NCBI GenBank assembly: GCA_964392285.1
Contig: CAYMOW010000003.1
Span: forward strand, 1 to 62,317
Source: an uncultured Candidatus Saccharibacteria bacterium
GTDB lineage: Bacteria; Patescibacteriota; Minisyncoccia; Phycocordibacterales; WO2-35-19
Length of the DNA: 62,317 bases
Direction: 5' to 3'
Shown in pieces: positions 1-62,317 of the stretch. The notes under the pieces were generated by a model. It searched no databases and was not told the DNA's origin. It saw only the letters and a list, made by a program, of their open reading frames with translations. How positions within the stretch are numbered: position 1 is the first letter of the stretch; each line of letters opens with the position of its first letter. The translations under genes and the position numbers were made by a program.

Positions 1-3000
1 GTCGTCCCGATGCCGACGTTGCCGCCGACTGGGTTGAGTGCCAAAGCGCGTAGAGCAACACCACTTTCGACTGATTGTATCCACGAATGCATCGTCGACG
101 AAGTGTCCACCCCGAATGCGAGACGCTGTCCCGGGTTCGTACTGCTTATGGCAAAGCGACCCAATTCTCCGCTTGCCGCAAGAGATGCGCCTGCAATATG
201 GAGTGTTGTAATCGGACTCGTCGTCCCGATGCCGACGTTGCCATTCTGTTGAACAGTGATAACCGGTGTGGCCCCACTGGAGATATTAAACCTGTTTGTA
301 TCATCTTTATTAACCTGCCAAACTGTCGACCCTCTGTCCATAAAATCAATAACGGAATATGCCACTACTGCTCCTGTCCCAGAGTCAATCTGGACACGGC
401 TATTACTAGTATTGCTAACTTTTACATACCCTTGTGCAACATTTAACAGTGCCCCCGGACTCGCCGTGCCAATACCAACATTGTTTGTTGAATAGTCATA
501 AACAAAACCAGAAGTTTCGATGGCGAGGCCACCAGAAATTGTAGAGGTGGCGGCAGTTGAAGTGGCGTTGAAGTATCCGAATGTCGGAGCTGATGTAGCA
601 ACAACTGCACCTGAGGCGTTGGTGGAAAGAAGTGAGTTGATTGCGACTGATGAGAGTGTGAGCGAAGGAGTGGTGATTGATGAGGTGGCGATAAATTGAG
701 AAGCTGTCACGATGCCGCCGTCAAAGTATCCCGAGCCAGTGACGCTGAGTTTGTATCCCGGAGTAGAGGAGCCAATTCCAAAGTTGCCACTATTTAATAC
801 TGTAACCAAACTGGTCCCGAAAGCATTATTGAGTATCTGCAAATTTGTAGAACCAGATGAAAGATATGTTGTTCCTGAACCATTATTTCCAATCAAAACA
901 TTTCCTCCATGTCTTAAGTATCTTGCTGCCCCGCTGTCTAAATTAATATCACCTACCACATCTAATTTTTGGATAGGATTTGTAGTGCCGATGCCAACGT
1001 TGCCTCCGTTCAGATATGAGCTTCCGTTAGCACGAACATGAACTGCTGTCGTTGCAGCATTAAAGAGCTGGAACTCTCCCTGGCCCGTGTCTCTTTCTGT
1101 AAGAAACGCCACGCGAGTGCCGGCGGCATTATAAAGTTCAATACCACCAGTAAATGCACCGGCTGACTTGAATCGACCTGTGCCCGCGACGTCAAGCAAA
1201 ACAGCTGGACTCGCGGTCCCAATTCCAACATTCCCACCTGTGGTAGCAAGATATGTCGAACCGGTGGCAGTGAGACCTGCGACACGGAGGTTGCCGGTGA
1301 TAGCTGCGTCACCGACCACCGAGAGTTTGGCGTATGGTGAGGTGGTGCCGATGCCGACGTTGCCGGTGCTTGTTATCCTCATCCCCTCAGAACCCGCCGC
1401 AACAAGCCTTAAAGAATCGTCACTATGCTCGTAATTAACTTGACCTCTATAACCTGCTGTACCATTACCATCTCCAAAAAGTAAAAATCCTGTGTTAGAT
1501 GCACCAGAAATAATCTGGATGGCTGCATCGCCGCCAGTATTTTGCGCAGTTACAATCGAGGCCGAATAAGGAGTTACGCTTCCAGTTATGCGAACATCAA
1601 GTTTTGACTCAGGAGAAGTTGTTCCAATACCTACATTTCCCCCACCCAATATTGTAAATCTTTCTGATGAGAAGTTGTTAATTGTGAATAATTTAGAGTT
1701 TGTTCCCACTGCCGTACCTGCCGTTCCCGATTTTTTTCCACCCTGCAATGAAATTGCGGCAGAATTCGCGGCAGTTACATCATCTGAAACGAAACCACGC
1801 AAAACAAGTGCTGAACCAGCATTATCATCACGAATACCCCAAATATCCAGACCGCCCGCTGTTCCACTTAAAGGACTGAATTTTCCATAAGCATTTGTCG
1901 CCGCATAACCAGTAATACCGTGGTCCACATCACCGTCGGTAAGATAAATTTCTCCGTTATAAACATCCAATTTCGCCCCCGGACTCGTTGTCCCGATACC
2001 GACGTTGCCGTTTGTTGCTATTCTCATTCCCGTTGACCCTCCAACCTGAACAGCATAATTATTTGTTGCAATATTATAAAGATTGTTGCTATCCATCCAA
2101 ATTAAATTCCGAATCGTTCCACCTGTATCTTTTTGAGTCAAAGCCCAGTTGCTATCCAAAAGTATAGCTCCGCCACTAACATGCAATTTTGCCCCCGGCC
2201 CCGTCGTCCCAATCCCCACATTCCCACCTTGTTTGACAAAGAGGGTGTTGCCAGCAGCGAAGTCACCGGTGGTGGTAGCGGAGCCGACGATGGTGGAAGA
2301 TGCGGTGGAGAGGAAGCCGTTGAGCATACCGATGGTGGTGGAAGTGGAGACACCCCAAGTTTGTGGAGTGAAGGGCCATGCGTAGTTAGTGAAGCCCTGG
2401 TCATTGTTGAACCAGGAGAGGTTAATAGATGATGAGGCGATTGAATTGAGTCTGCCACCAGTACCGAGATATGCGAAGCCTTGTGATAGACCAGAGAATG
2501 TAGCTGTGCCTGTGGCAGTGAAGTTTGCAGTGTTGAGGTTAGAAGTGAAGACACCGTCACCGACGACAGAGAGTTTGGCGTATGGCGAGGTGGTGCCGAT
2601 GCCGACGTTGCCGGTGTTATCAATTCTCATTCGTTCTACCGTAGTCCCTGAACCTCTCGTCAAAAATGTCAAAGCCCCGTCTGTCGTGGCAGAATAGGCA
2701 GTCAAACTGATTCCTCTTATTGCCGCCCATTGGATTGCAGATGTTGGTCCAAAATCAATTTGTCCAGCAGCATTCCCGTTATTCGTCAATGAATTAATCA
2801 GTTGCAATTTTGCTGGAGTATCCGTAGTAATGCTATTAATTCCCACAACCCCTAGCGAATTAAGACTCATAACCGTATTGTTTGCCGAAGGACCAGTCGC
2901 GAGCTCAAAGTTCATTGTGGTATCTGCAGGTGTGCCACTAATACTATTGCTTATTTTATTAAGATAAGTTGTAGGAATGTCAGATCGATTGAAAATAAGA

Positions 3001-5264
3001 ACATTTTCTCTTGTCGCATAGGAGACGGCACTAACAGATGTACCGACTTGAATTGCCCCACTCACCACTTGTAATTTATTCACAGGTGCGGCGGTCCCAA
3101 TACCCACATTGTTTGTCGAGTAGTCGTAGACGAAGCCAGAGCCTTCGATTGCAAGACCGCCAGCGATTGTTGATGTAGCAGCGGTTGAGGTGGCATTGAA
3201 TCTGCCAAAGGTTGGAACGGACGTAGCAGTGATCACACCAGAAGCATCGGTTGAAAGCAGAGAGTTGATTGCAACTGATGAGAGAGTAAGTGAAGGTGTG
3301 GTGATACTTGATGTTGCAGTGAATGTCGAAGCAAGCACATCACCACCGGTGAAGACTCCTGAGCCTCCGACGGAGAGTGTGCGGTATGGTGAGGTGGTGC
3401 CGATGCCGACGTTGCCACCAGCTGTTGCAAAGTATGCAGAACCAGATGAAGTGAGTGCTGTGGTGGAAGCATAGGTGAAGTTGGAAGTAGATGAAGCGTT
3501 GATACCACCTCGAGCCCATATAGGCATAGTAGTAGTTGGCGCAATATTTAATGCCCCAAAATTGTTTAAGAATGTCCAATCATAGTTGGTTAGGTTCGAG
3601 ATTCCCGCTTGAACGGTTAGCGCGCCAGATGTGTTGACCAAACCAGAACCAGTGAAATCGGTCAGGTACTCACTACCAAGACCAAGAGTGCTTGTATAAA
3701 GAGAGGTCGAAGTAGCGTGAGCGAGAGTCGTGCTGCCATTTACATTCAAAGTGCCGGTAGCGGTGATGTTGCTTGCAGTTAGGTTGCGGGTAATGAACCC
3801 GTCACCAACTACCGAAAGACTAGCGAACGGACTTGAGGTGCCGATGCCGACGTTGCCGCTAGTGCGCCAAACACTTGTGCCGTCGGTCGTCCAGTTGCCT
3901 ACACTAGCACCCCCCAAAAGCGAACCATTCCAATAGAGGTCGCCACTGTTGGTATTGTAAAGTCTGTAAGTGGTGCTTGCCGGAGCTGGGTTGTTGCCAA
4001 GATAAAGCGCGCCATCGAGAGTCAGGGCTTCGTAATTGGTAGTGGTGCCGATGTTGAGCCATTCGGTCACAGTGAGGTCAGCCATTGTGCTCGAACCAGT
4101 AAAGCTCGCCGTGCTCGAGACCGAAAGAGTGGTAAGACCGGCCGAACCAGCAAAAGAAGAATTGCCACTGATTGTAACATCGCTCAAGTTCGTAATCGGC
4201 CGACTCAGAGTATCGACAATGCTATCGTTTTGGTTGGTGATATAGTAGCGAGTAACATTTGGCGCGGTTGGGCTGGTCAGAAAATAATTTTTGAGTTCTG
4301 CAATCTTCTGATCAACATAACTTCTGTCCGAACTTTCTACTACAAATGTTTTGGAAACAATATTTTGTCCATTTTTCTCATCACGACCCATCACTCTTGA
4401 ATTTGGATTTTGGATGAATTTTTGCTCGCCTATTTTTGCAATCCAACTTTCTCTAATCCACGGCATAGCAATTTTCTTTGCCGTATCCGCAAACCAATCA
4501 GAAATTTTTTCCCAACCCAAAAAGACAGAACCCGTGAGTATCGAGTTATCACCAAGCAAAATACTACGACCAAAATTATTTTTATCCAGACCAAATTGTC
4601 CGGCTACCGACTCGCCATACAAATTCCAAATATTTTCAACTTCTTGCCCGACACTGGTCGGACTCAATTCTTTGGCCTTTTCAAAATCAATATTTCCGAC
4701 GTTCGCAAAACTCCAAAACACGAGAGCAAACATCAATAGAGTGGAAACCCCTAAAGCAAACTTATCTACCAAAGATTTTGAAGGTTTTTTGTTAAGGCTA
4801 TTTTTGAGCGCTTGCAAAGCCTCATAACGCCCTCTGTCCACATCAAACTTCTTCAGAGGCTTTACAAAAAGAGGTGCTTCATCCTTTATGTAGAGTATTT
4901 TATCTGGTTTAATCTCGGCTTTCCGAGATTGATTATTATCAAGCCCCAGCACAAAATAATGATTTTTCTCGCCTGATTCGCTTAATCTTTTACTTTTCTT
5001 TTTATTTTGATCAGGAACATTTTCTTCATTTTGAAGATCGACTGATTTATTTTTGTTTTCTTTTTTTGTCGTTTTAAGATGATTTAATTTCTTATGATTC
5101 AAAACTTCATCTCTATCAACATACCAACTTCGACCAACAAGAGTGCCGGAGATTTTTTTCGCACGAATAAGCTGGCCAACATAGTCACTGGAGTAACCTG
5201 AAATCTCGGCAGCTCGTTTTGCCGAGATAAACTTTTTTCCATTGAGATCCAGTTCTTTTTCCAC
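1..5264 (-). CDS. Giant (>1750 aa) membrane-anchored surface protein; its 3' end runs off the window. It has an N-terminal excisionase/MerR-like HTH and one TM segment. A long repetitive region follows, with at least 13 GNVGIGT(T/S)xP tail-fibre-like motifs.
   Basis: My own minus-strand translation starts at GTG 5264, with an in-frame TAG at 5270-5268 immediately upstream. It reads VEKELDLNGKKFISAKRAAEISGYSSDYVGQLIRAKKISGTLVGRSWYVDRDEV... then the hydrophobic stretch FALGVSTLLMFALVFWSF. Repeated ...GNVGIGTTSPYAKLSVVGD... blocks follow. This frame has no ORF-track entry because it meets no stop before position 1. The frame at position 1-26 (GGNVGIGTT) matches the frame at 5264. The + strand VVPMPTLP/VVPIPTFP mini-ORFs in the track are the reverse complement of GNVGIGTT. 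Confidence 0.8.
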   Translation of the reverse strand, partial: MEKELDLNGKKFISAKRAAEISGYSSDYVGQLIRAKKISGTLVGRSWYVDRDEVLNHKKLNHLKTTKKENKNKSVDLQNEENVPDQNKKKSKRLSESGEKNHYFVLGLDNNQSRKAEIKPDKILYIKDEAPLFVKPLKKFDVDRGRYEALQALKNSLNKKPSKSLVDKFALGVSTLLMFALVFWSFANVGNIDFEKAKELSPTSVGQEVENIWNLYGESVAGQFGLDKNNFGRSILLGDNSILTGSVFLGWEKISDWFADTAKKIAMPWIRESWIAKIGEQKFIQNPNSRVMGRDEKNGQNIVSKTFVVESSDRSYVDQKIAELKNYFLTSPTAPNVTRYYITNQNDSIVDTLSRPITNLSDVTISGNSSFAGSAGLTTLSVSSTASFTGSSTMADLTVTEWLNIGTTTNYEALTLDGALYLGNNPAPASTTYRLYNTNSGDLYWNGSLLGGASVGNWTTDGTSVWRTSGNVGIGTSSPFASLSVVGDGFITRNLTASNITATGTLNVNGSTTLAHATSTSLYTSTLGLGSEYLTDFTGSGLVNTSGALTVQAGISNLTNYDWTFLNNFGALNIAPTTTMPIWARGGINASSTSNFTYASTTALTSSGSAYFATAGGNVGIGTTSPYRTLSVGGSGVFTGGDVLASTFTATSSITTPSLTLSSVAINSLLSTDASGVITATSVPTFGRFNATSTAATSTIAGGLAIEGSGFVYDYSTNNVGIGTAAPVNKLQVVSGAIQVGTSVSAVSYATRENVLIFNRSDIPTTYLNKISNSISGTPADTTMNFELATGPSANNTVMSLNSLGVVGINSITTDTPAKLQLINSLTNNGNAAGQIDFGPTSAIQWAAIRGISLTAYSATTDGALTFLTRGSGTTVERMRIDNTGNVGIGTTSPYAKLSVVGDGVFTSNLNTANFTATGTATFSGLSQGFAYLGTGGRLNSIASSSINLSWFNNDQGFTNYAWPFTPQTWGVSTSTTIGMLNGFLSTASSTIVGSATTTGDFAAGNTLFVKQGGNVGIGTTGPGAKLHVSGGAILLDSNWALTQKDTGGTIRNLIWMDSNNLYNIATNNYAVQVGGSTGMRIATNGNVGIGTTSPGAKLDVYNGEIYLTDGDVDHGITGYAATNAYGKFSPLSGTAGGLDIWGIRDDNAGSALVLRGFVSDDVTAANSAAISLQGGKKSGTAGTAVGTNSKLFTINNFSSERFTILGGGNVGIGTTSPESKLDVRITGSVTPYSASIVTAQNTGGDAAIQIISGASNTGFLLFGDGNGTAGYRGQVNYEHSDDSLRLVAAGSEGMRITSTGNVGIGTTSPYAKLSVVGDAAITGNLRVAGLTATGSTYLATTGGNVGIGTASPAVLLDVAGTGRFKSAGAFTGGIELYNAAGTRVAFLTERDTGQGEFQLFNAATTAVHVRANGSSYLNGGNVGIGTTNPIQKLDVVGDINLDSGAARYLRHGGNVLIGNNGSGTTYLSSGSTNLQILNNAFGTSLVTVLNSGNFGIGSSTPGYKLSVTGSGYFDGGIVTASQFIATSSITTPSLTLSSVAINSLLSTNASGAVVATSAPTFGYFNATSTAATSTISGGLAIETSGFVYDYSTNNVGIGTASPGALLNVAQGYVKVSNTSNSRVQIDSGTGAVVAYSVIDFMDRGSTVWQVNKDDTNRFNISSGATPVITVQQNGNVGIGTTSPITTLHIAGASLAASGELGRFAISSTNPGQRLAFGVDTSSTMHSWIQSVESGVALRALALNPVGGNVGIGT

Positions 5265-5912: not shown

Positions 5913-6468
5913 ATTTCTTAAACTGGATTCTAGATTTTCTAAATATTTCCAAAAGATTTAAGATCATCTCGAATACCAAATCAAAATATAGAGTAATTTG
6001 GAAGTTCAATAAAATCCATAGACCCCAAGAGCTTCAAAAAGTTTAGGTTCTAAAAAACAAATCCTCCATCAAAGCCAGCTTAAGAGATCGAAACAATACG
6101 CTCACTTCCAGTAACAAACAAACCAGGGCGAGAAAAGACCAAACCCTTCTCACTCGGCCAAACACAATTTCTAAAATTAAAGACTTTCAGAAAAGATAGG
6201 TTCCCTCCTCATCCAAGATAGACCAAGCACAACCAAACACTCCACCCCAAAACACCAAAAGTCTGCCGAGCCACCAAACCGAAGTCGCGAACTTTTAAAA
6301 ATCGGGTCCAAAACAGCTCACAAACCACCTGATTCCAAACCATATTATACCACAAAACTTGCCTTGGTTTAATATCCAACGCTCGGCGTTGAATATCTAA
6401 CCCTGGGCAACTGATGTTATCCCCAAGACTTTCAAACAAGCCACACCTCGCCCTGCTATACTGAACTT

Positions 6469-6996
6469 ATGAGATTTTTAGAATTCAAAGAGAACAAAAC
6501 TTACTTCATCCGGGTCGCTGGTCCAGAGGAGCGACAAATTTTTAAAACAGATGAAGACAAAGCTCGTCTACTTTTTCTTGTCCTCTATCTTCAGTCCCCT
6601 ATTCCGATCTACAACACCACTTGGTACAGCCGAAGCTTCCTAAAGAAAGGTCGCTTCCCTACCATAGCCAAAGAAAAACAGATACTCAAAAACCGCAGTG
6701 TCGAACTTTTGGCTTTTGCCATCCTCGAAAACGAGCTCCTGCTTTTGGTTAGAAATATCTCTTTTGGCGCAGTCACGGTTTATATGCACAGAGCACTAAC
6801 CAGCTTTGCCAAATATTTCAATGCCAAAAACAGAGCTCGCGGACACGTCTTTGCTGGACCATTTTTCGCCGAAGAAATCAAAGACAAAGCCGAACTAGAA
6901 AAAAAGAAAAACGAAATAACCAACCTCCGAAAGGATGGTTGGTCGAGCCATAGTGACAAGCAGAAAAACCGCTGGGGCGAGCTTTTGAAATGCTAG
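6469..6996 (+). CDS. IS200/RayT-like (Y1 HUH transposase fold) protein with a degenerate HUH motif and no C-terminal catalytic Tyr motif; probably inactive or domesticated
   Basis: Three family blocks are recognisable. YFIRVAGPEERQIF matches YHVxxRGNxxxxIF. VELLAFAILENELLLLV matches AYxLMxNHxHLLV, with both His lost. FAKYFNAKNRARGHVFAGPFFAEEIKD matches YxxxFNxxxxRxGHLFQGRFKSxxV. The YIHxNP-type tail is absent. Confidence 0.55.
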   Translation: MRFLEFKENKTYFIRVAGPEERQIFKTDEDKARLLFLVLYLQSPIPIYNTTWYSRSFLKKGRFPTIAKEKQILKNRSVELLAFAILENELLLLVRNISFGAVTVYMHRALTSFAKYFNAKNRARGHVFAGPFFAEEIKDKAELEKKKNEITNLRKDGWSSHSDKQKNRWGELLKC

Positions 6997-17445: not shown

Positions 17446-17484
17446 CGATTATACACTTTTCCGCGGCCGCGGATTTTTGTATAA
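17446..17484. repeat. 39-bp exact dispersed repeat containing the 14-bp palindrome TCCGCGGCCGCGGA (copy 1)
   Basis: The sequence cgattatacacttttccgcggccgcggatttttgtataa is identical to 18699-18737. It lies 10 nt downstream of the CYTH gene stop. Confidence 0.95.
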
Positions 17485-17493
17485 TCAAAAAAA

Positions 17494-18036
17494 TTAGAAC
17501 TTCATATCGTACCAATCTAGACCATAGATTTCTTCTATCAAAATTCTCTCGCCCTTGGCCCAAGTGCGATTATTCTCCAAGCCGAGCAAGACAAGTGCTT
17601 CTTTAACATGCTCCTCGCTTTTACCCTCAACCTCAACAAAAGCCGGCATCCCCGGATACTCATCGATATCAAACTGCCAATCTTTATAAGTAAAAGATGT
17701 TCGATCTTTTTCTTGATGCGCATACCTTTCTAGACCGATTTCCTCAAAAAGATCGGCAAGCTTTGCTGGCTCGACGATATCAAAATTGATTTCTTTGTGT
17801 TTTCTTGCCGTGCCCATTATTTCCGACCTGGCTTTCCAAGTGACTTCATTTCTACCATCGGAATATGTCCTGATCCTCAAAAACCACTTTTCCTCACCCG
17901 ATTTTTCTCCCTTAAATCTAAACCAATCAACCACAAGCCGATTTTCGGCCAACTTTTCGGCCCCAAGATCAACTAGTTTGACCTTTATATCGGCAACGTC
18001 TATGTCCAAAACTTTTGTTTCTATTTCTTGGGCCAT
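17494..18036 (-). CDS. CYTH-domain protein (CyaB-type class IV adenylyl cyclase / triphosphate tunnel metalloenzyme)
   Basis: The N-terminal EIETKVL (ExExK) signature is present, the size is 180 aa, and there are alternating charged beta-strand motifs (FLRIRT, VTWKAR, FVEVEG). Confidence 0.8.
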   Translation of the reverse strand: MAQEIETKVLDIDVADIKVKLVDLGAEKLAENRLVVDWFRFKGEKSGEEKWFLRIRTYSDGRNEVTWKARSEIMGTARKHKEINFDIVEPAKLADLFEEIGLERYAHQEKDRTSFTYKDWQFDIDEYPGMPAFVEVEGKSEEHVKEALVLLGLENNRTWAKGERILIEEIYGLDWYDMKF

Positions 18037-18037
18037 A

Positions 18038-18475
18038 TTATTCGATTACATCTTTAATTTCGAAAGACACTTCTTTTAGCTCATTTTCTGGAGTAGTGGC
18101 CCGGCTACCCGGTCTGTAAAGAAACTTCCTTGGCTCATATTCATAAATACCCTCGTCCCCCTCCTTTCGAGGCACAATGTGTAAATGAAAATGCGGAACA
18201 GACTGACCAGCCATTTTGTTTACATTCCAAGCAATATTAAACCCCTCGGCTCCATACAGCTTGGTCAAAGCCTTTACTATCTTCATCCGCAAATCTTCAA
18301 TTGCCACTCTTTCCTCATTGGTTAAATCCTCATATTTAGCAACGCATCTTTTGGGCACCACCAAAGTATGCCCCGGAGTGATCGGGATATTGGTCAAAAA
18401 AGCCCAGGCGAGATCGTTTTCAACAATTTGTCTTTCTTTTATTTCCGGCAGTGTGCAGAATACGCATTCTTTCAT
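18038..18475 (-). CDS. HIT (histidine triad) family nucleotide hydrolase/transferase
   Basis: The histidine triad HFHLHIVPR is present, with N-terminal CVFCTL and PGHTLVVPKR. The stop lies 1 nt before the CYTH start. Confidence 0.9.
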   Translation of the reverse strand: MKECVFCTLPEIKERQIVENDLAWAFLTNIPITPGHTLVVPKRCVAKYEDLTNEERVAIEDLRMKIVKALTKLYGAEGFNIAWNVNKMAGQSVPHFHLHIVPRKEGDEGIYEYEPRKFLYRPGSRATTPENELKEVSFEIKDVIE

Positions 18476-18698: not shown

Positions 18699-18737
18699 CG
18701 ATTATACACTTTTCCGCGGCCGCGGATTTTTGTATAA
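18699..18737. repeat. 39-bp exact dispersed repeat with the TCCGCGGCCGCGGA palindrome (copy 2)
   Basis: It is identical to 17446-17484 and lies 13 nt downstream of the RelE-like gene stop. Confidence 0.95.
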
Positions 18738-18750
18738 CCTATATCTAAAC

Positions 18751-18993
18751 TTACAGATCGCCATAAGTATGGTCGTTTCGGTTGTCGATTTTGATAATCC
18801 TAACCTCACTTTTATTCATATAGAAAATTATTCTTAACTTTGATTTTCTGATCCTATACAGATCTTCAAAGCCCTTTAATTTTTTGAAGTTTAGGTCTTT
18901 AAAATTTCTTGATTTGATCGCATCCATGTACTCCAAAGCAATAATTCTTTCTTTGAACGAGAGCCTGCTCAAAAACTTATCTATCTTGTTCAT
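18751..18993 (-). CDS. Type II toxin, RelE/ParE family
   Basis: The 80-aa product reads KKLKGFEDLYRIRKSKLRIIFYMNKSEVRIIKIDNRNDHTY, the classic RelE/ParE C-terminal pattern. It overlaps the upstream antitoxin gene by 17 nt. Confidence 0.7.
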   Translation of the reverse strand: MNKIDKFLSRLSFKERIIALEYMDAIKSRNFKDLNFKKLKGFEDLYRIRKSKLRIIFYMNKSEVRIIKIDNRNDHTYGDL

Positions 18994-19243
18994 TTAACTT
19001 TTTTAAAGACTTTAAAACATCTTCTATTGGAACACCTCGTTTGTTTATCTTGGTAAAGTCAACGACTGTCTCCCACAGACTGTCATCGTCTTCGTCCATA
19101 GGGACGACCCTAAAGACAGGCTTCGATCTCTTGACCACGGTAAATGACTCCCCTTTTCCTAGGCGAGTTATATACTTTTCTGTGTTGAGTCTTAATTCTT
19201 TTAAGCCAATTATTTGATTTTTGGTTTTGGTAATCATATACAA
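18977..19243 (-). CDS. Type II antitoxin, Phd/YefM-like
   Basis: The 88-aa product reads IIGLKELRLNTEKYITRLGKGESFTVVKRSKPVFRVVPMDE, the Phd/YefM N-terminal fold pattern. It lies directly upstream of the toxin and overlaps it. Confidence 0.7.
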   Translation of the reverse strand: MYMITKTKNQIIGLKELRLNTEKYITRLGKGESFTVVKRSKPVFRVVPMDEDDDSLWETVVDFTKINKRGVPIEDVLKSLKKLNEQDR

Positions 19244-19267: not shown

Positions 19268-21715
19268 TCAAGCTCCATGGCACCTCTTAAACTTTTTACC
19301 ACTACCACACCAACAGGGGTCATTCCTGCCGATATCCTTATACCCCCCGCCAGCTATTTCTCCCCTCTCCTTTGCAAGGAGAGGGGTCGGGGGTGAGGTA
19401 GTTATCCTCTCCGCCTGTCTCTGAACATCCGAAAAACCGACATTACTGCTTGTCTCTTTGAGCTTCTTCTCCGACGTTTCAGTCGGAATCCCGACCTCTA
19501 TGCGTCGGGATAGATTTTCTTCAATTGTGGCTGCGATCGAGCTTTCCATTTGTTTGAAAAGTTGCAAACCTTCCCTCTTGTATTCGACAAGCGGATCTCT
19601 TTGACCATAAGCCCGCAAATTGACCGAGCTGCGCAAATAGTCCATCTGCTCTAGATGATCGACCCAAAACATATCATGGACCTGCAGTTTGAGCTGCTTG
19701 ATTTGCGGATCACTTTCATTCATCAAAATCTGCCTTCTCTTTTCATAAAATATTTTGCGCTGATAATTCATCACATCGTCGTATTCGAGCACGTGTTTGC
19801 GCGCGTCAAAGTTGAGCCCCTCGATTCGACTCTGAGCACTCTCGAGCGAACGTGTAATCAGCCGATTTTGGATTGGTTCGTCTTCGGCAATACCAAGCCG
19901 ACCCATCATATTTTTGACCGTATCGGCGGCAAAAACTCGCATAATATGGTCCTCCATCGAAACAAAGAATTGCGTCTCACCCGGGTCACCCTGTCGGCCC
20001 GACCTACCTCGGAGCTGGTTATCTATTCGGCGCGCATCATGACGCTCGGTCCCCAGCACAAAGAGCCCACCAAGGGCTTTGACCTTGTCATAGGCGCCCT
20101 CCGGCGCCGGGTTGCCCCCAAGCTTGATGTCGACACCACGGCCAGCCATATTGGTCGCGACCGTCACCGCCCCCTCCCGACCGGCTTGAGAGATGATCTC
20201 ACCTTCACGTTCATGATTTTTGGCATTCAACATTTCAAACCGCACACCTTCGCGCTTCAAAAATTCCGCCAAGAGCTCGTTTTTCTCAATCGAGATGGTG
20301 CCGATGAGCACTGGCTGACCTTTGGTTTGCAATTCTTTGACTTTGCGCGCGATCGCCTTGAGTTTGCCATTTTCGGTTTGGAAGATCAGATCATCGCGAT
20401 CGACTCTTTGCGGAGTTTTGTTGGTTGGCACGACAATCGTCGTGAGTCCGTAGACTTTATAAAACTCTTCCGAGGAGGTAGCCGCCGTACCGGTCATACC
20501 GGCCAGCTTTTTATACATTCTAAAGTAATTCTGGTAAGTGATCGAGGCGAAGGTCTTGCTTTCTTTTTGGATCCGCACCCCTTCCTTGGCTTCGATCGCC
20601 TGATGCAAACCCTCCGACCAACGTCGGCCCGGTTGCAAACGGCCGGTATAAGGATCGACAATTATAACCTCATCGTCGCGGACCACATACTCCTTGTCCT
20701 TGAGGTAAAGCGCCTGGGCTTTGAGCGCCGTCTCCAGATGGTGCACCACCTTGACCCCACCTTCGACATAAATATTGCCCAAACCAAGCATCTCCTCGGC
20801 CCGAGCAATACCGGCCTCCGTAATCAAAACCGAATGCAGCTTTTCGTCTTTGGTATAATCTTCTCCCTCTTTCAAACGCAAAGCTATAGCCGCAAACTTT
20901 TTGTAAAATGCATCGGAATCCTCGGCCGGCGCAGAGATAATAAGTGGCGTACGCGCCTCGTCGATCAAGATCGAGTCGATCTCGTCGACAATCGCAAAGT
21001 TGTGCTCCTTCTGGCGGACCTTTAGCCATTCGTATTCCAGATTGTCGCGCAAATAATCAAAACCAAACTCGCTATTGGTTCCATAAGTGATGTCGGCCTC
21101 ATAAGCTTCGATGCGCGAACAAGGCTTTAGAAATTCGTGCACGATATGAAAGGCGCCCTTCTCGTCTCTTTCTTTGTCTTCTTTGCTTGATTCTTGATTC
21201 TTAATTCCTGATTCTAGATTTGGATCATACAAAAAGCTCGACTCATGAGCGATCACAGAAACAGTTAGTCCAAGTGCATTATATATTTGTCCCATCCAAG
21301 TCGCATCGCGTCTCGAAAGATAGTCGTTCACGGTTACAATATGCACACCCTTGCCCGCAAGCGCGTTGAGGTAGGCTGGCAAGGTTGCGACCAAAGTCTT
21401 ACCTTCACCGGTGCGCATCTCGGCAATATTGCCTTGATGCAGAGCAATACCTCCGATAAGTTGAACATCAAAATGCCTTTGACCCAAAGTGCGCCGAGAA
21501 GCTTCGCGCACACAGGCAAAGGCTTCGGGCAAAATCTGATCCAAAGTCTCACCCGAAGAAAGCCTGTTTTTGAATTCTGCAGTTTTCTGCCTCAAAGCTT
21601 CAGCCGAAAGCTCGGTTATTTCTGCTTCGAGAGCATTTATTTTGGCCACCAAAGGCTCGGCGGTCTTGAGGTACCGGCTACTTTCATCACCAAAAATTTT
21701 GCTCCAGAAAGACAT
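19268..21715 (-). CDS. secA: Preprotein translocase ATPase SecA
   Basis: The 815-aa product shows MRTGEGKTLVATLPAYLNAL (Walker A), DEIDSILIDEARTPLIIS (DEAD-like), TNMAGRGVDIKLGG, and the C-terminal zinc finger CWCGSGKKFKRCHG. Confidence 0.95.
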   Translation of the reverse strand: MSFWSKIFGDESSRYLKTAEPLVAKINALEAEITELSAEALRQKTAEFKNRLSSGETLDQILPEAFACVREASRRTLGQRHFDVQLIGGIALHQGNIAEMRTGEGKTLVATLPAYLNALAGKGVHIVTVNDYLSRRDATWMGQIYNALGLTVSVIAHESSFLYDPNLESGIKNQESSKEDKERDEKGAFHIVHEFLKPCSRIEAYEADITYGTNSEFGFDYLRDNLEYEWLKVRQKEHNFAIVDEIDSILIDEARTPLIISAPAEDSDAFYKKFAAIALRLKEGEDYTKDEKLHSVLITEAGIARAEEMLGLGNIYVEGGVKVVHHLETALKAQALYLKDKEYVVRDDEVIIVDPYTGRLQPGRRWSEGLHQAIEAKEGVRIQKESKTFASITYQNYFRMYKKLAGMTGTAATSSEEFYKVYGLTTIVVPTNKTPQRVDRDDLIFQTENGKLKAIARKVKELQTKGQPVLIGTISIEKNELLAEFLKREGVRFEMLNAKNHEREGEIISQAGREGAVTVATNMAGRGVDIKLGGNPAPEGAYDKVKALGGLFVLGTERHDARRIDNQLRGRSGRQGDPGETQFFVSMEDHIMRVFAADTVKNMMGRLGIAEDEPIQNRLITRSLESAQSRIEGLNFDARKHVLEYDDVMNYQRKIFYEKRRQILMNESDPQIKQLKLQVHDMFWVDHLEQMDYLRSSVNLRAYGQRDPLVEYKREGLQLFKQMESSIAATIEENLSRRIEVGIPTETSEKKLKETSSNVGFSDVQRQAERITTSPPTPLLAKERGEIAGGGYKDIGRNDPCWCGSGKKFKRCHGA
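19357..19399. repeat. Palindromic mini-element, copy A, lying inside the secA C-terminal linker
   Basis: The sequence is tttctcccctctcctttgcaaggagaggggtcgggggtgaggt. It has an 11-bp stem (cccctctcctt/aaggagagggg) and a GGGGTGAGGT tail. Related copies lie at 37844-37888 and 39704-39758, all in the same orientation. Confidence 0.85.
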
Positions 21716-36096: not shown

Positions 36097-37179
36097 TTAC
36101 GAAAATACTTTTAGAATTTGATCCGCAAGAACTTTTGGGGTGAATTTTTCTTGAAAAATCTTACGGCCATTCTCGCCCAATTTGCTCAATAAATCAGGGT
36201 TGTTTTTTAGATAAAGAATCTTATCGGCCAAATCTTGCGGGTCGGCCGGGTTTGCAAACATCACCTCTTCAGCCTCTTTTAGTATTTCTGCCACTGGTTC
36301 GGTCCGGGCCGTAATATAAGGCAGACCCAGGGCCAAGGACTCAAAACACTTATGAGGTATGGTGCGCGAGAGGCGTTCGTGCTTTTCGAATTGGCCCAAA
36401 GAGATGTGGCAAGAGAGCATCATCTTTCGCAAATCTTCATTTGACAAATTTTCTGTAATTAATTCCAAATTCTTCAACCCTAATTCTTGATTCATAATTC
36501 TTAATTCTTTCTCCAGCCAACCATTGCCAATAATCAAAAAATTTACCCCCTTTTCTTCCAAAATTTTGGCCGATTTTATAATATGCTTCATTCCGGCTTC
36601 AGGTAAAAACTTGCCTCGAAACAGAGCTGTAAACTTTTCTCTTTTTTTTATCTCTGGTTCAACAAAGAACACTGAGTCATCAGCGCCGGTATAGACAACC
36701 TTGTATTTTGGACTTTGGCCAAATTGCTCTACAAAATATTTTCTTTGGGCCTCACTCTCGACCAGCACAATATCAGCACACTTTACTGCCAGCCAATCAA
36801 TGAATTTGATATACCAAGCTTTCAAACCCCAAAATCCCCTGTTTTGCCTAGAGAGCACCACCCCTTCATACATTGTGCATAGCGCATCAAAAACAACTAT
36901 CTTTGAGGACAGAAGTTTAGCGAACCAAACGACCGAATGGCTAGGATAGCCGACTACCAAAGCATCGTATTTGCCTGACAAATTTTTGTGTTTGCGGAAA
37001 AGCTCAACATACTTTTGTAGACCCGGTGCCAGACTCTGGCACTCCAGAATTTCAACCCCAAGCTGTCTTAGGCCTTGGGTATAGATTCTAGACCGGCCCC
37101 AACTTGAATTGTATGTGCCGAACCAACAGATACGAAATAACGAATTTTTTAACGAATGGCCACGAATAGAGTTATTCAT
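36097..37179 (-). CDS. Glycosyltransferase family 4 (GT-B, group 1)
   Basis: The 360-aa product has a C-terminal GT1-type block: LGQFEKHERLSRTIPHKCFESLALGLPYITART. There is an 8-nt overlap between its start and the upstream GT-C gene's end. Confidence 0.75.
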   Translation of the reverse strand: MNNSIRGHSLKNSLFRICWFGTYNSSWGRSRIYTQGLRQLGVEILECQSLAPGLQKYVELFRKHKNLSGKYDALVVGYPSHSVVWFAKLLSSKIVVFDALCTMYEGVVLSRQNRGFWGLKAWYIKFIDWLAVKCADIVLVESEAQRKYFVEQFGQSPKYKVVYTGADDSVFFVEPEIKKREKFTALFRGKFLPEAGMKHIIKSAKILEEKGVNFLIIGNGWLEKELRIMNQELGLKNLELITENLSNEDLRKMMLSCHISLGQFEKHERLSRTIPHKCFESLALGLPYITARTEPVAEILKEAEEVMFANPADPQDLADKILYLKNNPDLLSKLGENGRKIFQEKFTPKVLADQILKVFS

Positions 37180-38860
37180 TACATTTAAATATTTTAGTCG
37201 TTATATATCGATCATTTTTTTCATATATATTTTTGCAGGAGCTAAGGTATTTGGAATAGAAATTATTCTCATCGATCCTAGGAATATCTATGTAGAGAAT
37301 ATGGCCTGAAAAATCTTTGAAGAAATCTCGATAAGTGCTTTCAAATTGTGGGGTGGCATAGAGCCGCCTTGCATATTTACCTGTTTTTTGGATTTCGTAA
37401 CCACCGATATCATTGTAGACCACCACCTTTTCGATTTCTTCATGCTCTGCTATATACGCTTCGCTACTCGCAAAAAGCCGATAGGGACTGCCGTTGATCT
37501 TGCCCCAAAGATACTCTTCGATAAAAACTCCGTTATAGAGTAGCCCAAGGACAAGAATTGACACCAAAGACCCTCTTTTGAATTCCGCTTTTCTCATCGC
37601 CCAAAAAGCAAAGACGAGCGAACAAATCCAAATGGTAGCGATAAAAGCAAAGGAAACATAAAAGCCGGTCGGCCCCGAACCGCCAGTGAAGGGAAAAAGA
37701 AAATTCCATTTCAAAGACAGAGCGCGCTCCAGCCATTCAGTTTTTGGATAATGCGGCGGCACAAAGTGGTTAAAAAATTGCAGAGAAAAAATTACGATAG
37801 CAAAAATTACCGGTATCACCACCTCACCCCAAGAAAACTCCGTTTTCTTTCCCCCCTCCTTGACAAGGAGAGGGGCCGGGGGTGAGGTCTGTGCAAACAG
37901 CGCGCCAACCAAAACAACCAGGGGTAGAATTAGAAACTGAAAATATCTATCAAGGGCGCCGGAAGAAAAGTCGAAAGCCACAAGATAAAAGAACAGACCA
38001 ACGATTATAAAAAGGATAAACGGGCGATACCTCGATATCATCTCTCTTTGCAAAAAAAGTATAGGTAGCACCAAAAGCGGCGACAGATACATAATCGATT
38101 TGGCCAACTGAATCATAGTTTGCAACCAACCCCTACCACCAAACCTAACGAAGTGCTCCCAATATTTAAGCGAGGCTTCCAATTTGAAAAAGGGAAAGAG
38201 TAGTTTCGCAAGCAAGAGCAACAAACCCAAAAAAACTGCCCCACTCAACGCATAGGCGAAATACTTCAATATTTTTCTGCGATCCGAAAAAACATTCTTT
38301 TCAAAAGCAAAGTCGAGAGCTAAGGCCGCAATAGCTATAACAAAGCTCGCTTTTACAAAAAAGCCTGCTACTGCCCCAACCACCAAAATTACAAACCACG
38401 CCCAATTCTTACTAAGCTCAAAGCCCTTAGCTCTTAGCTTGAAGTGCCCAATACACATAATCAAGAAAAATGTCGGCATTATTGCCCCATCGGTATCAAC
38501 CATTAGCGAAGCGAGGACAGAATAGAAAGAGACAGCAAAAAAGAATACCGACCAAAGTGCGCTTTTCTTGTCCCCCACCATTTTGGCGAGATAAAAAAGC
38601 AAAACCATATTCAAAAAAGAAAAGGCGAGCGGAATAATTCTAAAATTGTCGTAACCAACCAGTGCGCCCAGCTCTCGATAAATAAACTCGCCAACTGGTG
38701 GGTGTGGTATACCGCCCGGCTCGGTTAGCGCTGGATTTACAATAATCGGCCATTTGTATTCGTCCTGGTGATAGAGATTATCAATCCCATCTACACGCAA
38801 GACAAAAAAGAGCACCAGGACCCCCAACCCAATCAAAATATCTTTTTTAGTCCAACTCAT
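37172..38860 (-). CDS. GT-C fold membrane glycosyltransferase (GT39/ArnT/PMT-like)
   Basis: The 562-aa product has about 12 TM segments. An acidic DE motif sits in the first loop (NLYHQDEYKW). It carries repeat copy B in a loop (QTSPPAPLLVKEGGK). Confidence 0.5.
   Translation of the reverse strand: MSWTKKDILIGLGVLVLFFVLRVDGIDNLYHQDEYKWPIIVNPALTEPGGIPHPPVGEFIYRELGALVGYDNFRIIPLAFSFLNMVLLFYLAKMVGDKKSALWSVFFFAVSFYSVLASLMVDTDGAIMPTFFLIMCIGHFKLRAKGFELSKNWAWFVILVVGAVAGFFVKASFVIAIAALALDFAFEKNVFSDRRKILKYFAYALSGAVFLGLLLLLAKLLFPFFKLEASLKYWEHFVRFGGRGWLQTMIQLAKSIMYLSPLLVLPILFLQREMISRYRPFILFIIVGLFFYLVAFDFSSGALDRYFQFLILPLVVLVGALFAQTSPPAPLLVKEGGKKTEFSWGEVVIPVIFAIVIFSLQFFNHFVPPHYPKTEWLERALSLKWNFLFPFTGGSGPTGFYVSFAFIATIWICSLVFAFWAMRKAEFKRGSLVSILVLGLLYNGVFIEEYLWGKINGSPYRLFASSEAYIAEHEEIEKVVVYNDIGGYEIQKTGKYARRLYATPQFESTYRDFFKDFSGHILYIDIPRIDENNFYSKYLSSCKNIYEKNDRYITTKIFKCNE
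37844..37888. repeat. Palindromic mini-element, copy B, inside the GT-C gene
   Basis: The sequence is tttctttcccccctccttgacaaggagaggggccgggggtgaggt. An inverted copy of the tail (acctcacccc) lies at 37821-37830. Confidence 0.8.
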
Positions 38861-38955: not shown

Positions 38956-39618
38956 ATGAAAACCATTGACGTTTTTTGTCAGTGGTGGGGTGTCGGCACA
39001 CCCATCAGCAAGTTGCCGGACGAGATCTGGATGATTGGTCTAGTATCATTCGGGGCAACACCAACCCGCCTAACTTACGGCTCTGATTGGGTGGTAATAC
39101 TGGGTCGAGAGCTCCTTCGAACACAACAGAGTCCGTGGGTCGTAACGGGTGAGTTCACCGGAAATCAGGTGTTCCAACTCGAAGAAAACCTGAAGCTGAA
39201 TGCGTTCGGAAAGGACCTGATCACTGCTGGCCAAGTGATCAGTACAATTCAAGAGGCCGAGGCATGGAAGGCCTCAGTCTACCCAAGCTTCGTTCCAAAG
39301 ACGTTGTGTATTGTGACCGACGAGATGCATTCAAGATCAGCTCGTCGGGTCAGTAACAGAGTCTGGAACGGATGGTGGGGGCTACGGCTAATCAAGAGGC
39401 TACTCGGAATGCCGTTGGTGAAGGTATTCGTCACGACCTTCCCAACACGAGAAGTCATTGACCCAGAGAGCCCAATGACAGCGCTTCGGAGCCAATGGCT
39501 CTGGGTGCGCAACAACGTCTTGCGCGAGCTCTTCTTGATGCTCGTACCGTTCGGGTACACCATCATGCGCAAGCTCAACATCCACCAACCGATCGCCGCC
39601 GACCGCGATGGCGAGTGA
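38956..39618 (+). CDS. DUF218/YdcF-like protein; GC-rich relative to its neighbours
   Basis: The stretch VVTGEFTGNQ...VISTIQEAEAWKASVYPSFVPKTLCIVTDEMHSRSARRV resembles the YdcF pattern (T.eEA ... VT..H..RA). A good SD (aggtaggtga) lies 7 nt upstream. By eye it is about 52% GC against about 40% in the flanks. Confidence 0.45.
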   Translation: MKTIDVFCQWWGVGTPISKLPDEIWMIGLVSFGATPTRLTYGSDWVVILGRELLRTQQSPWVVTGEFTGNQVFQLEENLKLNAFGKDLITAGQVISTIQEAEAWKASVYPSFVPKTLCIVTDEMHSRSARRVSNRVWNGWWGLRLIKRLLGMPLVKVFVTTFPTREVIDPESPMTALRSQWLWVRNNVLRELFLMLVPFGYTIMRKLNIHQPIAADRDGE

Positions 39619-39703: not shown

Positions 39704-39758
39704 TTTCTCCCCTCTCCTCTTACAAGGAGAGGGGTCGAGCAAAGCGAGGGGGTGAGGT
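39704..39758. repeat. Palindromic mini-element, copy C, intergenic between convergent genes
   Basis: The sequence is tttctcccctctcctcttacaaggagaggggtcgagcaaagcgagggggtgaggt. It is the same element with about 10 extra nt (agcaaagcga) before the GGGGTGAGGT tail. Confidence 0.8.
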
Positions 39759-39761
39759 AGC

Positions 39762-40409
39762 TTATTTTTTCTCCCCCACAAACAACATCTGCCCTGCAAA
39801 AGGTTTGATCGGCGAATTTATGTATGTCCGCACAATAAAAGGCACAAGCGCGCGAGGGATGAGTGAAGAATCAGACTTCATCGAAAACGGCAAAAATTTT
39901 GGCATAGCTAGAATTATTTTGAAATCATTGGCCACCAAAAAGTCGCCGAGCGAAGCGTCGCTCCAAACCTTCTTGTGGGTATAATCGTCGAAATAGTTTT
40001 TGTAAGCTAGACGGTAGTTGGGCTGCATAAGTATTAGCCTGGCCCCCACCTTCAACACCCTCTTCACTTCTCGCATTACCCGCTCTAGCTCTATGTCGTC
40101 GAAATGCTCGAGCAGGTTGCTTGCGTGTATTACATCGATGGAGCCGTTAGGAATCAGTGAAAGATCCGAGGCCGGCTTCTGCAAAAACTCCACATCTTGA
40201 GCTTTGTAATTTGGCGTCTCGGATGAAGTATCGACGGCATACTTCTTGCCCGCAGTTATGTTGTTTATAAAATCACAATAACCAGCCCCGAGGTCTAAAA
40301 CTGTGCCGCCGGCTGGCACAAATTTTTGGTGAAAGCGAGCAATCTCCTTCCAAATCCTGTTTCGATCGGGATTAAACTTAAATCGCGATTCGTAATATTT
40401 GTCCTTCAT
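39762..40409 (-). CDS. Class I SAM-dependent methyltransferase
   Basis: Motif I is VLDLGAGYCDFINNI. Motif II/III-like stretches are VIHASNLLEHF and LKVGARLILMQP. Confidence 0.8.
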   Translation of the reverse strand: MKDKYYESRFKFNPDRNRIWKEIARFHQKFVPAGGTVLDLGAGYCDFINNITAGKKYAVDTSSETPNYKAQDVEFLQKPASDLSLIPNGSIDVIHASNLLEHFDDIELERVMREVKRVLKVGARLILMQPNYRLAYKNYFDDYTHKKVWSDASLGDFLVANDFKIILAMPKFLPFSMKSDSSLIPRALVPFIVRTYINSPIKPFAGQMLFVGEKK

Positions 40410-60667: not shown

Positions 60668-60778
60668 GTTCTGGCGCCTAGCTACTCTCCCCTTTTCAGA
60701 GTACCATCGCCTCTACGAAGCTTAACTTCCGTGTTCGGAATGAGAACGGGTGTGGCCTTCGCGATAAAGCACCAAAAC
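60668..60778 (-). rRNA. rrf: 5S ribosomal RNA
   Basis: The minus strand reads guuuuggugcuuuaucgcgaaggccacacccguucucauuccgaacacggaaguuaagcuucguagaggcgaugguacu...ggagaguagcuaggcgccagaac. The conserved CCGAACACGGAAGUUAAGC core is present. Helix I pairs the two ends over 12 bp. Confidence 0.9.
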
Positions 60779-61372: not shown

Positions 61373-62018
61373 CTTGTTACCACACATTACTGTGTGCAAT
61401 GGACTATAGCTTTTTCTGTTTTCTTCTGTAATTGAAGGGGAAGGTACCCTCCCGGTGTACACTAGGCTGTAATCTCGTGGATCATCTAAGCCTCGGTGAC
61501 TCTTCCTCCCCCATTACAAAAGAAAACAAATTACTGACGTTTAGTCTCTACGGGTGTTTATGAATTGAATAGCGCCGGGAGAGGCTGTGCACAACCTCTC
61601 CCTATGGCGACCACCATCTAAGCCCCGGAATACTCCGTGCGGACCTAGAACTTCTGGTAATCACCACTATTCAATTCACAAACTTCCCTCGGTATTAACC
61701 TTGCTACTAGATTCTATCTACTAGCTACTGGCCTTCACCGATATTAGTCAGTTTGTTCATTTTGCATTTTGATTTTTTAATTTTCAATTTGCATTATGAC
61801 CGCCGTGATTTGATTGATTTCCCGCCTCTTCGGCGGGTCGCCGATGAGGCGACTACTATACTTAATTTCATAAACGAAACGTTTTATAACAGTTTTCTTT
61901 TATCTCAAGGGATTCAGACTGCTGAGGTTAGTAGTTAGGTATTAGTAGTCAGCATACAGGTTTAGGAAATTTATTTTTTCCTGACTACTGACTACTGACT
62001 ACTGACTACTATCTCTCA
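61373..62018 (-). mobile_element. ORF-less 646-nt group I-like intron in 23S rRNA, at the site corresponding to about E. coli 2593 (the I-CreI / Cr.LSU-type site)
   Basis: The exon junction restores AGACCGU|CGUGAGACAG (E. coli AGAACGU CGUGAGACAG). The 5' exon ends in U and the insert ends in G. An internal AGAGACUAAACGUCAG (plus 61534-61550) resembles the Tetrahymena J6/7-P7 CAGACUAAAUGUCGG. Several long-range complementary blocks are present. There is no endonuclease-sized ORF. Confidence 0.7.
61981..62010. repeat. Tandem heptanucleotide repeat (ctgacta x4.3) near the 5' end of the intron
   Basis: The sequence is ctgacta ctgacta ctgacta ctgacta ct. A complementary tagtagtcag at 61944-61953 can pair with it. 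Confidence 0.9.
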
Positions 62019-62317
62019 ACGGTCTGAACCCAGCTCGCGTATCTTTTTAAATGGCGAACAGCCATACCCTTGGGAGCTTCTCCACCCCCGGGATAAGATG
62101 AGCCGACATCGAGGTGCCGAACTCCGCCGTCGCTCTGGACGCTTAGGCGGAACTAGCCTGTTATCCCCGGAGTAGCTTTTGTCAGATGAGCTCTGGCCGC
62201 GTCTAACGCGAACCATCGGATCACTTAGCTCTGCTTTCGCATCTGCGCGACACTTACGTCTTGCAGTTAAGCCAGCTTGTGCCTATACACTATCGCCATG
62301 GTTTCCATTCACGGCTA

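Follow-up and report, generated by a model that had tools for sequence, protein, structure and literature searches.

Intrastrand triplex motifs have already been described in bacteria, the best known being the Escherichia coli BoxC repeat, also called the PIT element or TMECO (Holder 2015, PMC4666352); its classification as a potential intrastrand triplex (PIT) element goes back to Hoyne and Maher (2000), as cited in Holder 2015. Here we report a repeat, apparently of this class, that lies in frame inside the secA gene of an uncultured Candidatus Saccharibacteria bacterium (assembly GCA_964392285.1). The stretch of DNA that was analyzed, referred to below as the window, is the 62,317 nucleotides of contig CAYMOW010000003.1, read along the forward strand, and it holds three copies of the repeat. 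We consider it likely that the feature in secA is one copy of a dispersed 40- to 70-nucleotide (nt) class II repeat of the BoxC/PIT/intrastrand-triplex kind, which has been installed both in SecA, within the C-terminal linker, and in a GT39 glycosyltransferase, within a loop, and is translated in each.

The TMECO consensus, CCCTCNCCC N3-6 GGGNGAGGG N3 GGGNGAGGG, is a class II purine motif, consisting of a pyrimidine arm (Y), a purine arm (R), and a third-strand domain (RH) (PMC4666352). E. coli MG1655 has 23 BoxC/TMECO copies, for example CCCTCTCCCTGTGGGAGAGGGTCGGGGTGAGGGC, which are always intergenic and are unlinked to transposons, phages, or plasmids (PMC4666352). Triplex motifs are abundant in enterobacteria and cyanobacteria, and in E. 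coli they are associated with locally rearranged loci (PMC4666352). Single strands of TMECO form stable triplexes in vitro, as judged from circular dichroism, nuclear magnetic resonance, and thermal melting of E. coli oligonucleotides (PMC4666352).

Palindromic repeats that are read in frame are likewise already known, as Rickettsia palindromic elements (RPEs) and as intragenic copies of repetitive extragenic palindromes (REPs). RPEs, reportedly first described by Ogata et al. in 2000, are about 100 to 150 bp long, are confined to Rickettsia, and are not known to be homopurine/homopyrimidine triplex motifs. MITEs (miniature inverted-repeat transposable elements) are small, non-autonomous-looking dispersed repeats that may fuse in frame with genes. 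RPEs resemble the repeat described here in being palindromic, in occurring in frame within numerous housekeeping genes that are unrelated to one another, in a genome that is small and dense in genes, and in being translated and tolerated in surface loops (PMC3733652). Our repeat, too, has entered unrelated genes in frame and left their open reading frames (ORFs) intact, although RPEs are a functional analogue only. Intragenic REPs tagged with GTAG/CGTC (Di Nocera, De Gregorio, and Rocco 2013, PMC3733652) are also short hairpins within ORFs; they encode 10 to 30 residues and often lie in replication and repair genes (uvrA/B, ligase, and helicases), much as copies of our repeat occur in the genes for LigA, UvrD, UvrC, and RarA.

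Three copies of the repeat in the window

The secA coding sequence (19268 to 21715, minus strand) specifies 815 amino acids, and the element falls after the SecA_SW domain and before the SEC-C zinc motif (residues 797 to 814). Read on the plus strand at 19362 to 19400, it is a BoxC/PIT-like class II intrastrand-triplex motif of 39 nt, with 11 triads, no mismatches, and two loops of 3 nt. The pyrimidine arm CCCCTCTCCTT (19362 to 19372) is followed by the loop tgc, the purine arm AAGGAGAGGGG (19376 to 19386) by the loop tcg, and the motif ends with the third-strand domain GGGGTGAGGTA (19390 to 19400). The second copy (37821 to 37888, plus strand) lies in the GT39/PMT_2 gene and is a composite, made up of an inverted tail ACCTCACCCC (37822 to 37831), a second small hairpin AAGAAAAC-tcc-GTTTTCTT, and a class II unit (37851 to 37888) with 10 triads, 1 mismatch, and loops of 5 and 3 nt. 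The third copy (39709 to 39759, plus strand) is intergenic, flanked by convergent genes at 38956 to 39618 (plus strand) and 39762 to 40409 (minus strand). It has 11 triads and 1 mismatch, and a 14-nt spacer, its second loop, separates the purine arm from the tail.

The initial annotation had described a hairpin-plus-tail element at 19357 to 19399, CCCCTCTCCTT-tgc-AAGGAGAGGGG-tc-GGGGGTGAGGT, that is translated within secA, together with two further copies at 37844 to 37888 and 39704 to 39758, all in one orientation. All three copies are indeed present, with the G-rich side on the plus strand in each; the sites were correct, and their limits are refined to those given above. The hairpin pattern, with up to 3 mismatches allowed, has two matches in the window against 0.00 expected by chance. 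The 11-mer tail GGGGGTGAGGT has three exact plus-strand matches, each adjoining a hairpin, where 0.38 matches would be expected in all.

A third domain that covaries with the purine arm

What was first taken for a tail is not an accessory but a third domain that mirrors the purine arm; the unit comprises a pyrimidine arm, a purine arm, and a G/T/A tail. Taken in reverse, the G-rich tail reproduces the purine arm: G faces G, and A faces A or T. The hairpins in the SecA linkers of relatives have different stems, and each stem is accompanied by its own, different tail: AAGGAGAGGGG occurs with GGGGTGAGGT, AAGGAGAAGGG with GGGATGAGGTT, AAGGGAAGGGGG with GGGGGATAGGTT, GGGGAGGGG with GGGGTGGGG, and AAGAGAAGG with GGATGAGTT. 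Covariation was tested on 60 distinct purine arms from the window and about 185 fetched loci by permuting the tails 2000 times. The mirror-match score of the arms against their own tails totaled 504, compared with 344 ± 12.7 (maximum, 389) for permuted tails, and none of the 2000 permutations reached the observed score. A mirror repeat cannot be produced by ordinary copying, and an intramolecular purine-motif triplex demands precisely this arrangement; the third domain places the element in the BoxC/PIT/TMECO class of intrastrand triplexes.

A motif finder was written with rules like those of ITxF, under which class II motifs carry 5'-Y, R, and RH-3' on one strand, Y is Watson-Crick complementary to R, and RH is antiparallel and forms G.G-C, A.A-T, or T.A-T triads. 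The domain order and the triad rules hold for all three window copies and for six copies in the SecA genes of orthologues. The secA copy (n = 11) and the GT39 copy (n = 10) also keep within the ITxF limits (stem, 6 to 15 nt; at most 1 mismatch; loops, 1 to 6 nt). The six orthologous SecA-linker elements (loci L001, L002, and L123 to L126) represent five sequence families; all of them fit class II, and they always lie on the strand antisense to secA. The same finder detected no G-rich motif in 100 simulated windows.

Two other structures were considered and rejected. A G-quadruplex fits the A-to-A/T correspondence and the covariation in run length between arm and tail less well than a triplex does. 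An intrinsic terminator would call for a T run after the stem, which is missing on either strand at all three copies, and a terminator scan did not call the intergenic copy.

BoxC/PIT/TMECO has the same Y-loop-R-loop-RH order, with stems of 9 to 11 nt and loops of about 3 nt, and near-identical cores (CCCTCTCC, GGAGAGGG, and GGGTGAGG) that can be aligned directly with ours. In the hrpB-mrcB spacer of MG1655, which we retrieved, BoxC units such as CCCTCTCCC-tgt-GGGAGAGGG-tcg-GGGTGAGGG align with the window copies. Both repeats are multicopy, occur as single units or inverted composites without a linked transposase, and are abundant in cyanobacteria, as was reported there and is seen here too. 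Both are also associated with local rearrangement, which here takes the form of a homology break about 115 nt from the secA copy. They differ in where they reside. E. coli copies are always intergenic, whereas two of the three window copies are translated inside coding sequences and 8 of the 10 copies from the candidate phyla radiation (CPR), among the matches listed, lie in genes; our repeat is thus not exclusively intergenic. E. coli copies are absent from phages and plasmids, whereas 59 viral contigs carry our motif. Some copies here, moreover, hold a small hairpin inside the second loop.

Host proteins tolerate the insert in a linker and a loop

In SecA, the element is translated as TSPPTPLLAKERGE (residues 773 to 786), upstream of the zinc motif, as the initial annotation had it, and the predicted peptide around the insert includes ERITTSPPTPLLAK. 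By its SecA homologues, the contig belongs to the CPR, where it falls among Paceibacterota and Zambryskibacteria-like organisms. An AlphaFold2 model of SecA, built from 43 sequences, has a predicted local distance difference test score (pLDDT) below 50 over residues 743 to 791 and of 30 to 34 over the insert, with no secondary structure there. The GT39/PMT_2 gene (37172 to 38860, minus strand) encodes a membrane glycosyltransferase of 562 amino acids with a Pfam PMT_2 domain. Its element is read in the same element frame as that of secA, again as first claimed, giving TSPPAPLLVKEGG; the whole composite is translated as TSPPAPLLVKEGGKKTEFSWGEV, residues 325 to 347, within a loop that joins two hydrophobic helices.

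Stop codons are absent from five of the element's six reading frames. Together with the low pLDDT of the SecA insert, this bears out the suggestion that in-frame insertion is tolerated in disordered linkers and loops. The further suggestion that such insertion is selected for finds no support, because host genes contain the element in three different frames and in both orientations.

Insertion history at the SecA linker and the GT39 loop

We inferred an ancestral SecA linker of approximately ITGVTDSxNxSxTPxxHKNI. Palindrome-type linker peptides (for example, TSPPTPLLAKERG, QPSLITREG, NLPNPPYIKGG, PQPPSYIKRGEDG, and PPLTPPLVQGRG) occur in about 39 of 97 SecA orthologues, with a patchy distribution on the tree, and most orthologues have a linker unrelated to the element peptide. 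The insert does not always begin at the same place: it follows the conserved "IT" directly in the window and comes after "ITGVTDS" in L125. The sister protein P0002 (93% identity) has a linker element of a different family, and the family found in the window recurs in P0022 and P0024, which belong to another clade (71 to 72% identity). The elements of the window and of L002 are identical at 45 of 46 nt, in proteins that are only 72% identical. A single ancient insertion in SecA followed by vertical descent was rejected because the tree is patchy, the offsets differ, and the families differ.

At the GT39 loop, most of 60 orthologues have a short loop such as KYFGGESNKLSRVD. The closest orthologue, P0122 (80% identity), has no element and retains this ancestral loop. 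The composite element is found at the same boundaries in the window sequence and in P0123, P0124, P0128, and P0136, which are scattered on a neighbor-joining tree. In P0132 and P0141, a hairpin plus tail occupies the same loop in the opposite orientation, and P0127, P0131, and P0165 carry other element families in GT39. At the DNA level, the composite (about 68 to 69 nt) replaces 39 nt of the native loop, and substitutions in its second small hairpin compensate for one another among the window, L187, and L188. In part of the GT39 clade, the filled alleles may go back to one ancient insertion that was passed on vertically.

The insert is therefore, as first proposed, lineage specific and not part of the ancestral protein, given a closest GT39 orthologue without the element and SecA linkers that are mostly unrelated to it. 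The initial annotation had named as contrary evidence any SecA orthologue with the same peptide in the absence of the DNA repeat, or an element confined to the three sites; neither applies, and P0022 and P0024, which share the peptide, use the same DNA element.

A recombination tract at the 3' end of secA

The 3' segment of secA that contains the element (19268 to 19514, minus strand) is where homology to the nearest relative, L001, collapses. Nucleotide identity between the two secA genes is 94 to 100% until about 245 nt before the stop codon and 28 to 60% thereafter, over a stretch that spans the linker, the element, and the zinc finger. Downstream of secA, the two also differ in gene content: the window has a Phd-type toxin-antitoxin pair, and L001 has a CYTH gene. 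We take this as direct evidence that the secA 3' segment is a recombination or replacement tract, that is, an allelic replacement; at least some of the apparent recurrent gains are therefore filled alleles moving between lineages. The position of the element beside a homology breakpoint is in line with the instability reported for triplex motifs in E. coli. The initial annotation had suggested a mobile repeat; transposition is something we infer, while the observation at secA is of allelic replacement by recombination.

The toxin-antitoxin module directly downstream of secA (18751 to 19243, minus strand) consists of a Phd/YefM-type antitoxin (18977 to 19243) and a small putative toxin (18751 to 18993). 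It is absent from that position in L001 and has 71% nucleotide identity to a module in L126 (17179 to 17711).

Distribution in other genomes and in viral contigs

At least 120 stretches of species-representative genomes contain the pattern AAGGAGAGGGG N2-14 GGGGTGAGGT, which confirms that the repeat is dispersed over many genomes. The matches listed span Cyanobacteria, Bacteroidota, Chloroflexota, Armatimonadota, Ignavibacteria, and Proteobacteria, as well as many CPR lineages and one Bathyarchaeia bin, and the pyrimidine arm is present at nearly every one of them, though the pattern did not demand it. Copies in cyanobacteria frequently take the form of a long palindrome that has a tail on either side and a mini-hairpin within the second loop. 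In IMG/VR, the pattern was found in 59 contigs, and the phage-like contig L128 has five same-strand copies in 7.3 kb.

Among the matches listed, 24 of 147 copies lie in long ORFs. CPR copies are in genes in 8 of 10 cases, versus 16 of 137 elsewhere (Fisher P = 6e-6). CPR hosts confirmed by Pfam include Dus, the NAD-dependent DNA ligase LigA, RarA/MgsA, UvrD, UvrC, DeoC, an amidohydrolase, and a PKD/LTD protein. Comparison with solved structures shows that the LigA copy is an insertion of 8 residues just before the KxDG motif and that in RarA the copy stands in place of a linker of similar length. The G-rich strand serves as the template in 9 of 10 host genes; this weak bias might come from selection against the triplex-prone strand being displaced by transcription. 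The orientation of the G-rich strand shows no bias in genomes (36 versus 37) when compared with local GC skew or gene strand, and the bias in viral contigs (12 versus 41) comes from copies that are probably not independent.

Rfam returned no family match at gathering or permissive thresholds, only chance-level matches (E ≥ 0.33). A blastn search of a cyanobacterial copy against plasmids gave no match, probably owing to low-complexity masking, and a protein-database search with a 42-amino-acid concatemer of the peptide gave no candidate. Exact sequence strings matched only unrelated primers in the literature.

Some loci found in this survey have features of their own. A Moraniibacteria UvrD/PcrA gene (L096, 833 to 4228) contains an intein (Intein_splicing/Hint, residues ~277 to 643) in addition to an in-frame triplex-motif insert at residue 92. 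In Dehalococcoidia, a conserved hairpin, GAGGGGC-gaa-GCCCCTC, regularly precedes the triplex unit, forming a unit of about 80 nt (loci L007, L010, L015, L018, L024, L034, L054, L094, and others). Near-identical ~80-nt units are present in bins labeled Bathyarchaeia, delta-proteobacterium, and Desulfobacterales, which suggests either horizontal spread or mis-binning.

Proposed mechanism and its weak points

We postulate that the G-rich strand (the plus strand here, which is the secA template strand), when single stranded, folds into a hairpin along whose purine arm the tail would lie antiparallel, the third strand forming G.G-C, A.A-T, and T.A-T triads. One copy would have entered SecA, in its hypervariable, disordered C-terminal linker, and another the GT39 loop, both being simply translated. 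Only copies that keep the frame would survive, and the encoded Pro/Ser/Thr...Lys/Glu/Arg/Gly peptide would be harmless in a linker. Open frames, a frame filter, and a harmless peptide together would account for most of the surviving copies in gene-dense CPR genomes being inside genes. We favor spread by a structure-dependent transposition or copying of single-stranded DNA, and filled alleles would also move laterally by homologous recombination, the sole part of this scheme that is directly supported here. The analysis does show the architecture of the repeat, the covariation of tail and arm, presence and absence at orthologous sites, recurrence in the linker and the loop, intact host ORFs, and the disorder of the linker.

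Several observations weigh against this interpretation. The three copies in 62 kb are 78 to 90% identical to one another and not identical. The intergenic copy departs from the ITxF limits, solely in its second loop of 14 nt (limit, 1 to 6 nt). A regular-expression search of both window strands with the strict TMECO consensus gave no match, the register of our element being offset by one base (CCCCTCTCC / GGAGAGGGG / GGGGTGAGG). The hairpin families in the permutation test are related to one another, and the number of independent covariation events is therefore smaller than 60, though the concerted changes in arm and tail are evident. Neither a transposase nor a target-site duplication nor a terminal inverted repeat was found in the flanks or at the repeat loci. 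The filled GT39 alleles have identical boundaries, with 39 nt of native loop replaced, and inheritance or recombination of one event therefore fits them better than repeated transposition. Finally, the triplex is a predicted fold, which we infer to form in vivo, transiently, during replication, repair, or transposition; in E. coli, the triplex was undetected in vivo by dimethyl sulfate footprinting (Holder 2015, PMC4666352).

Alternative explanations

The initial annotation had assigned the repeat to the REP/MITE class, and the alternative that fares best is of this kind: a classical REP/REPIN or MITE moved in trans by a REP-associated tyrosine transposase (RAYT) or another transposase, the tail being a recognition or cleavage tag. 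We think this unlikely. A possible enzyme does exist in the lineage, encoded beside gatB in L125, where a Y1_Tnp protein matches Pfam PF01797 at 4.8e-10, but it scores only 36.5 bits against NCBIfam REP_Tyr_transpos, far under the cutoff of 80. The orthologue in the window (6469 to 6996, plus strand), syntenic beside gatB and 43% identical to the L125 protein, is a degenerate Y1 (IS200/RAYT-like) transposase homologue that has lost the HUH motif (PNHFHIL to ENELLLL) and has no Pfam or other family match. Repeats flank neither Y1 gene, and no Y1 gene was detected in 120 repeat-containing 8-kb loci among the matches listed. The window homologue is at most a candidate for a former mobilizing enzyme; a link between Y1 genes and the repeats was looked for and not found. 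It is preceded by about 490 nt of A/C-rich sequence without an ORF (5980 to 6468).

Intragenic REPs are documented (PMC3733652), phage-like contigs hold copies of our repeat (the five in L128 among them), and the tail GGGGTGAG fits the GGGGWSAS of inverted repeats flanking "TIRYT" Y1 transposases (Di Nocera 2013, PMC3733652), though the last is a lead only. REPs and REPINs, however, carry a GTAG/CGTC tag directly at the foot of the stem and are tied to a repeat-flanked cognate RAYT, neither of which was found here: the stems are flanked by TTTCT on one side and TCG or CCG on the other, and GTAG, present in two of the three copies, comes only where the tail ends, 10 nt from the stem. Our stems, unlike those of intragenic REPs, are strictly pyrimidine/purine and are joined by a mirror third domain, whereas a simple recognition tag would need no mirror image that covaries with the arm. 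MITEs differ in having terminal inverted repeats, target-site duplications, and a parent insertion sequence; our repeat has no terminal inverted repeats beyond the hairpin, no parent insertion sequence, and no consistent flanking direct repeat that would indicate target-site duplication. The initial annotation was thus correct in substance, in that the repeat is dispersed, is a true insertion, and is tolerated in frame in a disordered linker, but it chose the wrong class.

A resident cis-acting structure of secA, for instance an mRNA hairpin or a signal for pausing or regulation with the Shine-Dalgarno-like AAGGAG, conserved in place and evolving by compensatory change without insertion, strikes us as highly improbable. 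It would explain why a hairpin of the same architecture sits in the same linker in about 40% of orthologues, why the stems differ between orthologues yet remain perfectly paired, and why the sequence folds well as RNA on both strands (z-scores, -3.0 and -3.4). However, about 60% of orthologues, many of them nested among carriers, have no such sequence; its position in the linker varies, as described above; and the same elements are also present in intergenic DNA, unrelated genes, other phyla, and phage-like contigs. Rfam holds no match. Purine-motif triplexes, furthermore, do not form in RNA (Holder 2015, PMC4666352), and a conserved third domain would therefore lack a role in an mRNA element.

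Least probable of all, to the point of being nearly negligible, is a peptide module selected for its function in the protein (a Pro-rich, charged linker tuning the SecA tail) with the palindrome as a by-product: the frame TSPPxPLLxKERG is used in 6 of 10 independent CPR host genes and the orientation relative to the gene is the same in the 9 of 10 hosts already mentioned (chi-square P = 0.011 and binomial P = 0.046 for these biases), and the SecA insert adjoins the zinc-binding motif, but three frames and both orientations are in use, the same DNA is also intergenic, the host proteins are functionally unrelated, and conservation is at the DNA level (45 of 46 nt versus 72% protein identity) and follows base-pairing and triad rules instead of codon rules.

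Other features of the window

The 23S rRNA match near the end of the window (61985 to 62317) stops at model position 2651, at 61985, and is followed by a group I intron-like match at 61380 to 61808 (minus strand; 45.5 bits against a gathering score of 50; E = 6.7e-10) and by a 5S rRNA at 60669 to 60776. The 23S gene is probably interrupted by an intron; intron interruptions have been reported for CPR rRNAs. At the other end, positions 1 to 3900 contain several families of 31- to 96-nt direct repeats whose spacings (for example, 243, 519, 231, and 405) are multiples of 3, which points to a large gene with tandem protein repeats running off the start of the contig. Two identical 39-nt repeats (CGATTATACACTTTTCCGCGGCCGCGGATTTTTGTATAA, containing the palindrome CCGCGGCCGCGG), at 17446 to 17484 and 18699 to 18737, bracket a CYTH gene (17494 to 18036) and a HIT-like gene (18038 to 18475); they may delimit a small module that was inserted there, or they may be a pair of regulatory or terminator sites.

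Implications for CPR genomes

BoxC, PIT, and triplex motifs have been known for decades without a function, and the triplex has never been detected in vivo. For the repeat described here as a triplex repeat, the covariation of tail and arm across families and phyla is evolutionary evidence for selection on a three-stranded fold and not on the hairpin alone. In the literature that we searched, we found no report of cross-family covariation of the third strand, of triplex repeats as translated parts of essential CPR genes, or of their recurrence in a SecA linker and a GT39 loop. In CPR bacteria, such repeats are translated along with the essential genes that contain them, and the same disordered linkers have them repeatedly. 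Filled and empty alleles, together with the breakpoint in secA, offer a natural system for studying the role of triplexes in insertion, recombination, and replication stalling. For annotation, the Pro-rich...KERG/GEG peptides in CPR proteins are to be read as repeat-derived inserts and not as conserved motifs.

A more far-reaching version, for which we see only a modest chance, is that triplex repeats are active, structure-dependent mobile or recombinogenic DNA in the CPR, that the third strand is selected as the triplex forms in vivo, and that these repeats time and again reshape linkers and loops of proteins and mark recombination breakpoints, as a general source of linker innovation. If this were true, the near-identity of copies across phyla and phages would reflect a triple constraint on each position plus horizontal spread, and SecA, GT39, LigA, UvrD, and RarA would be examples of repeat-driven linker remodeling and allele shuffling in minimal genomes.

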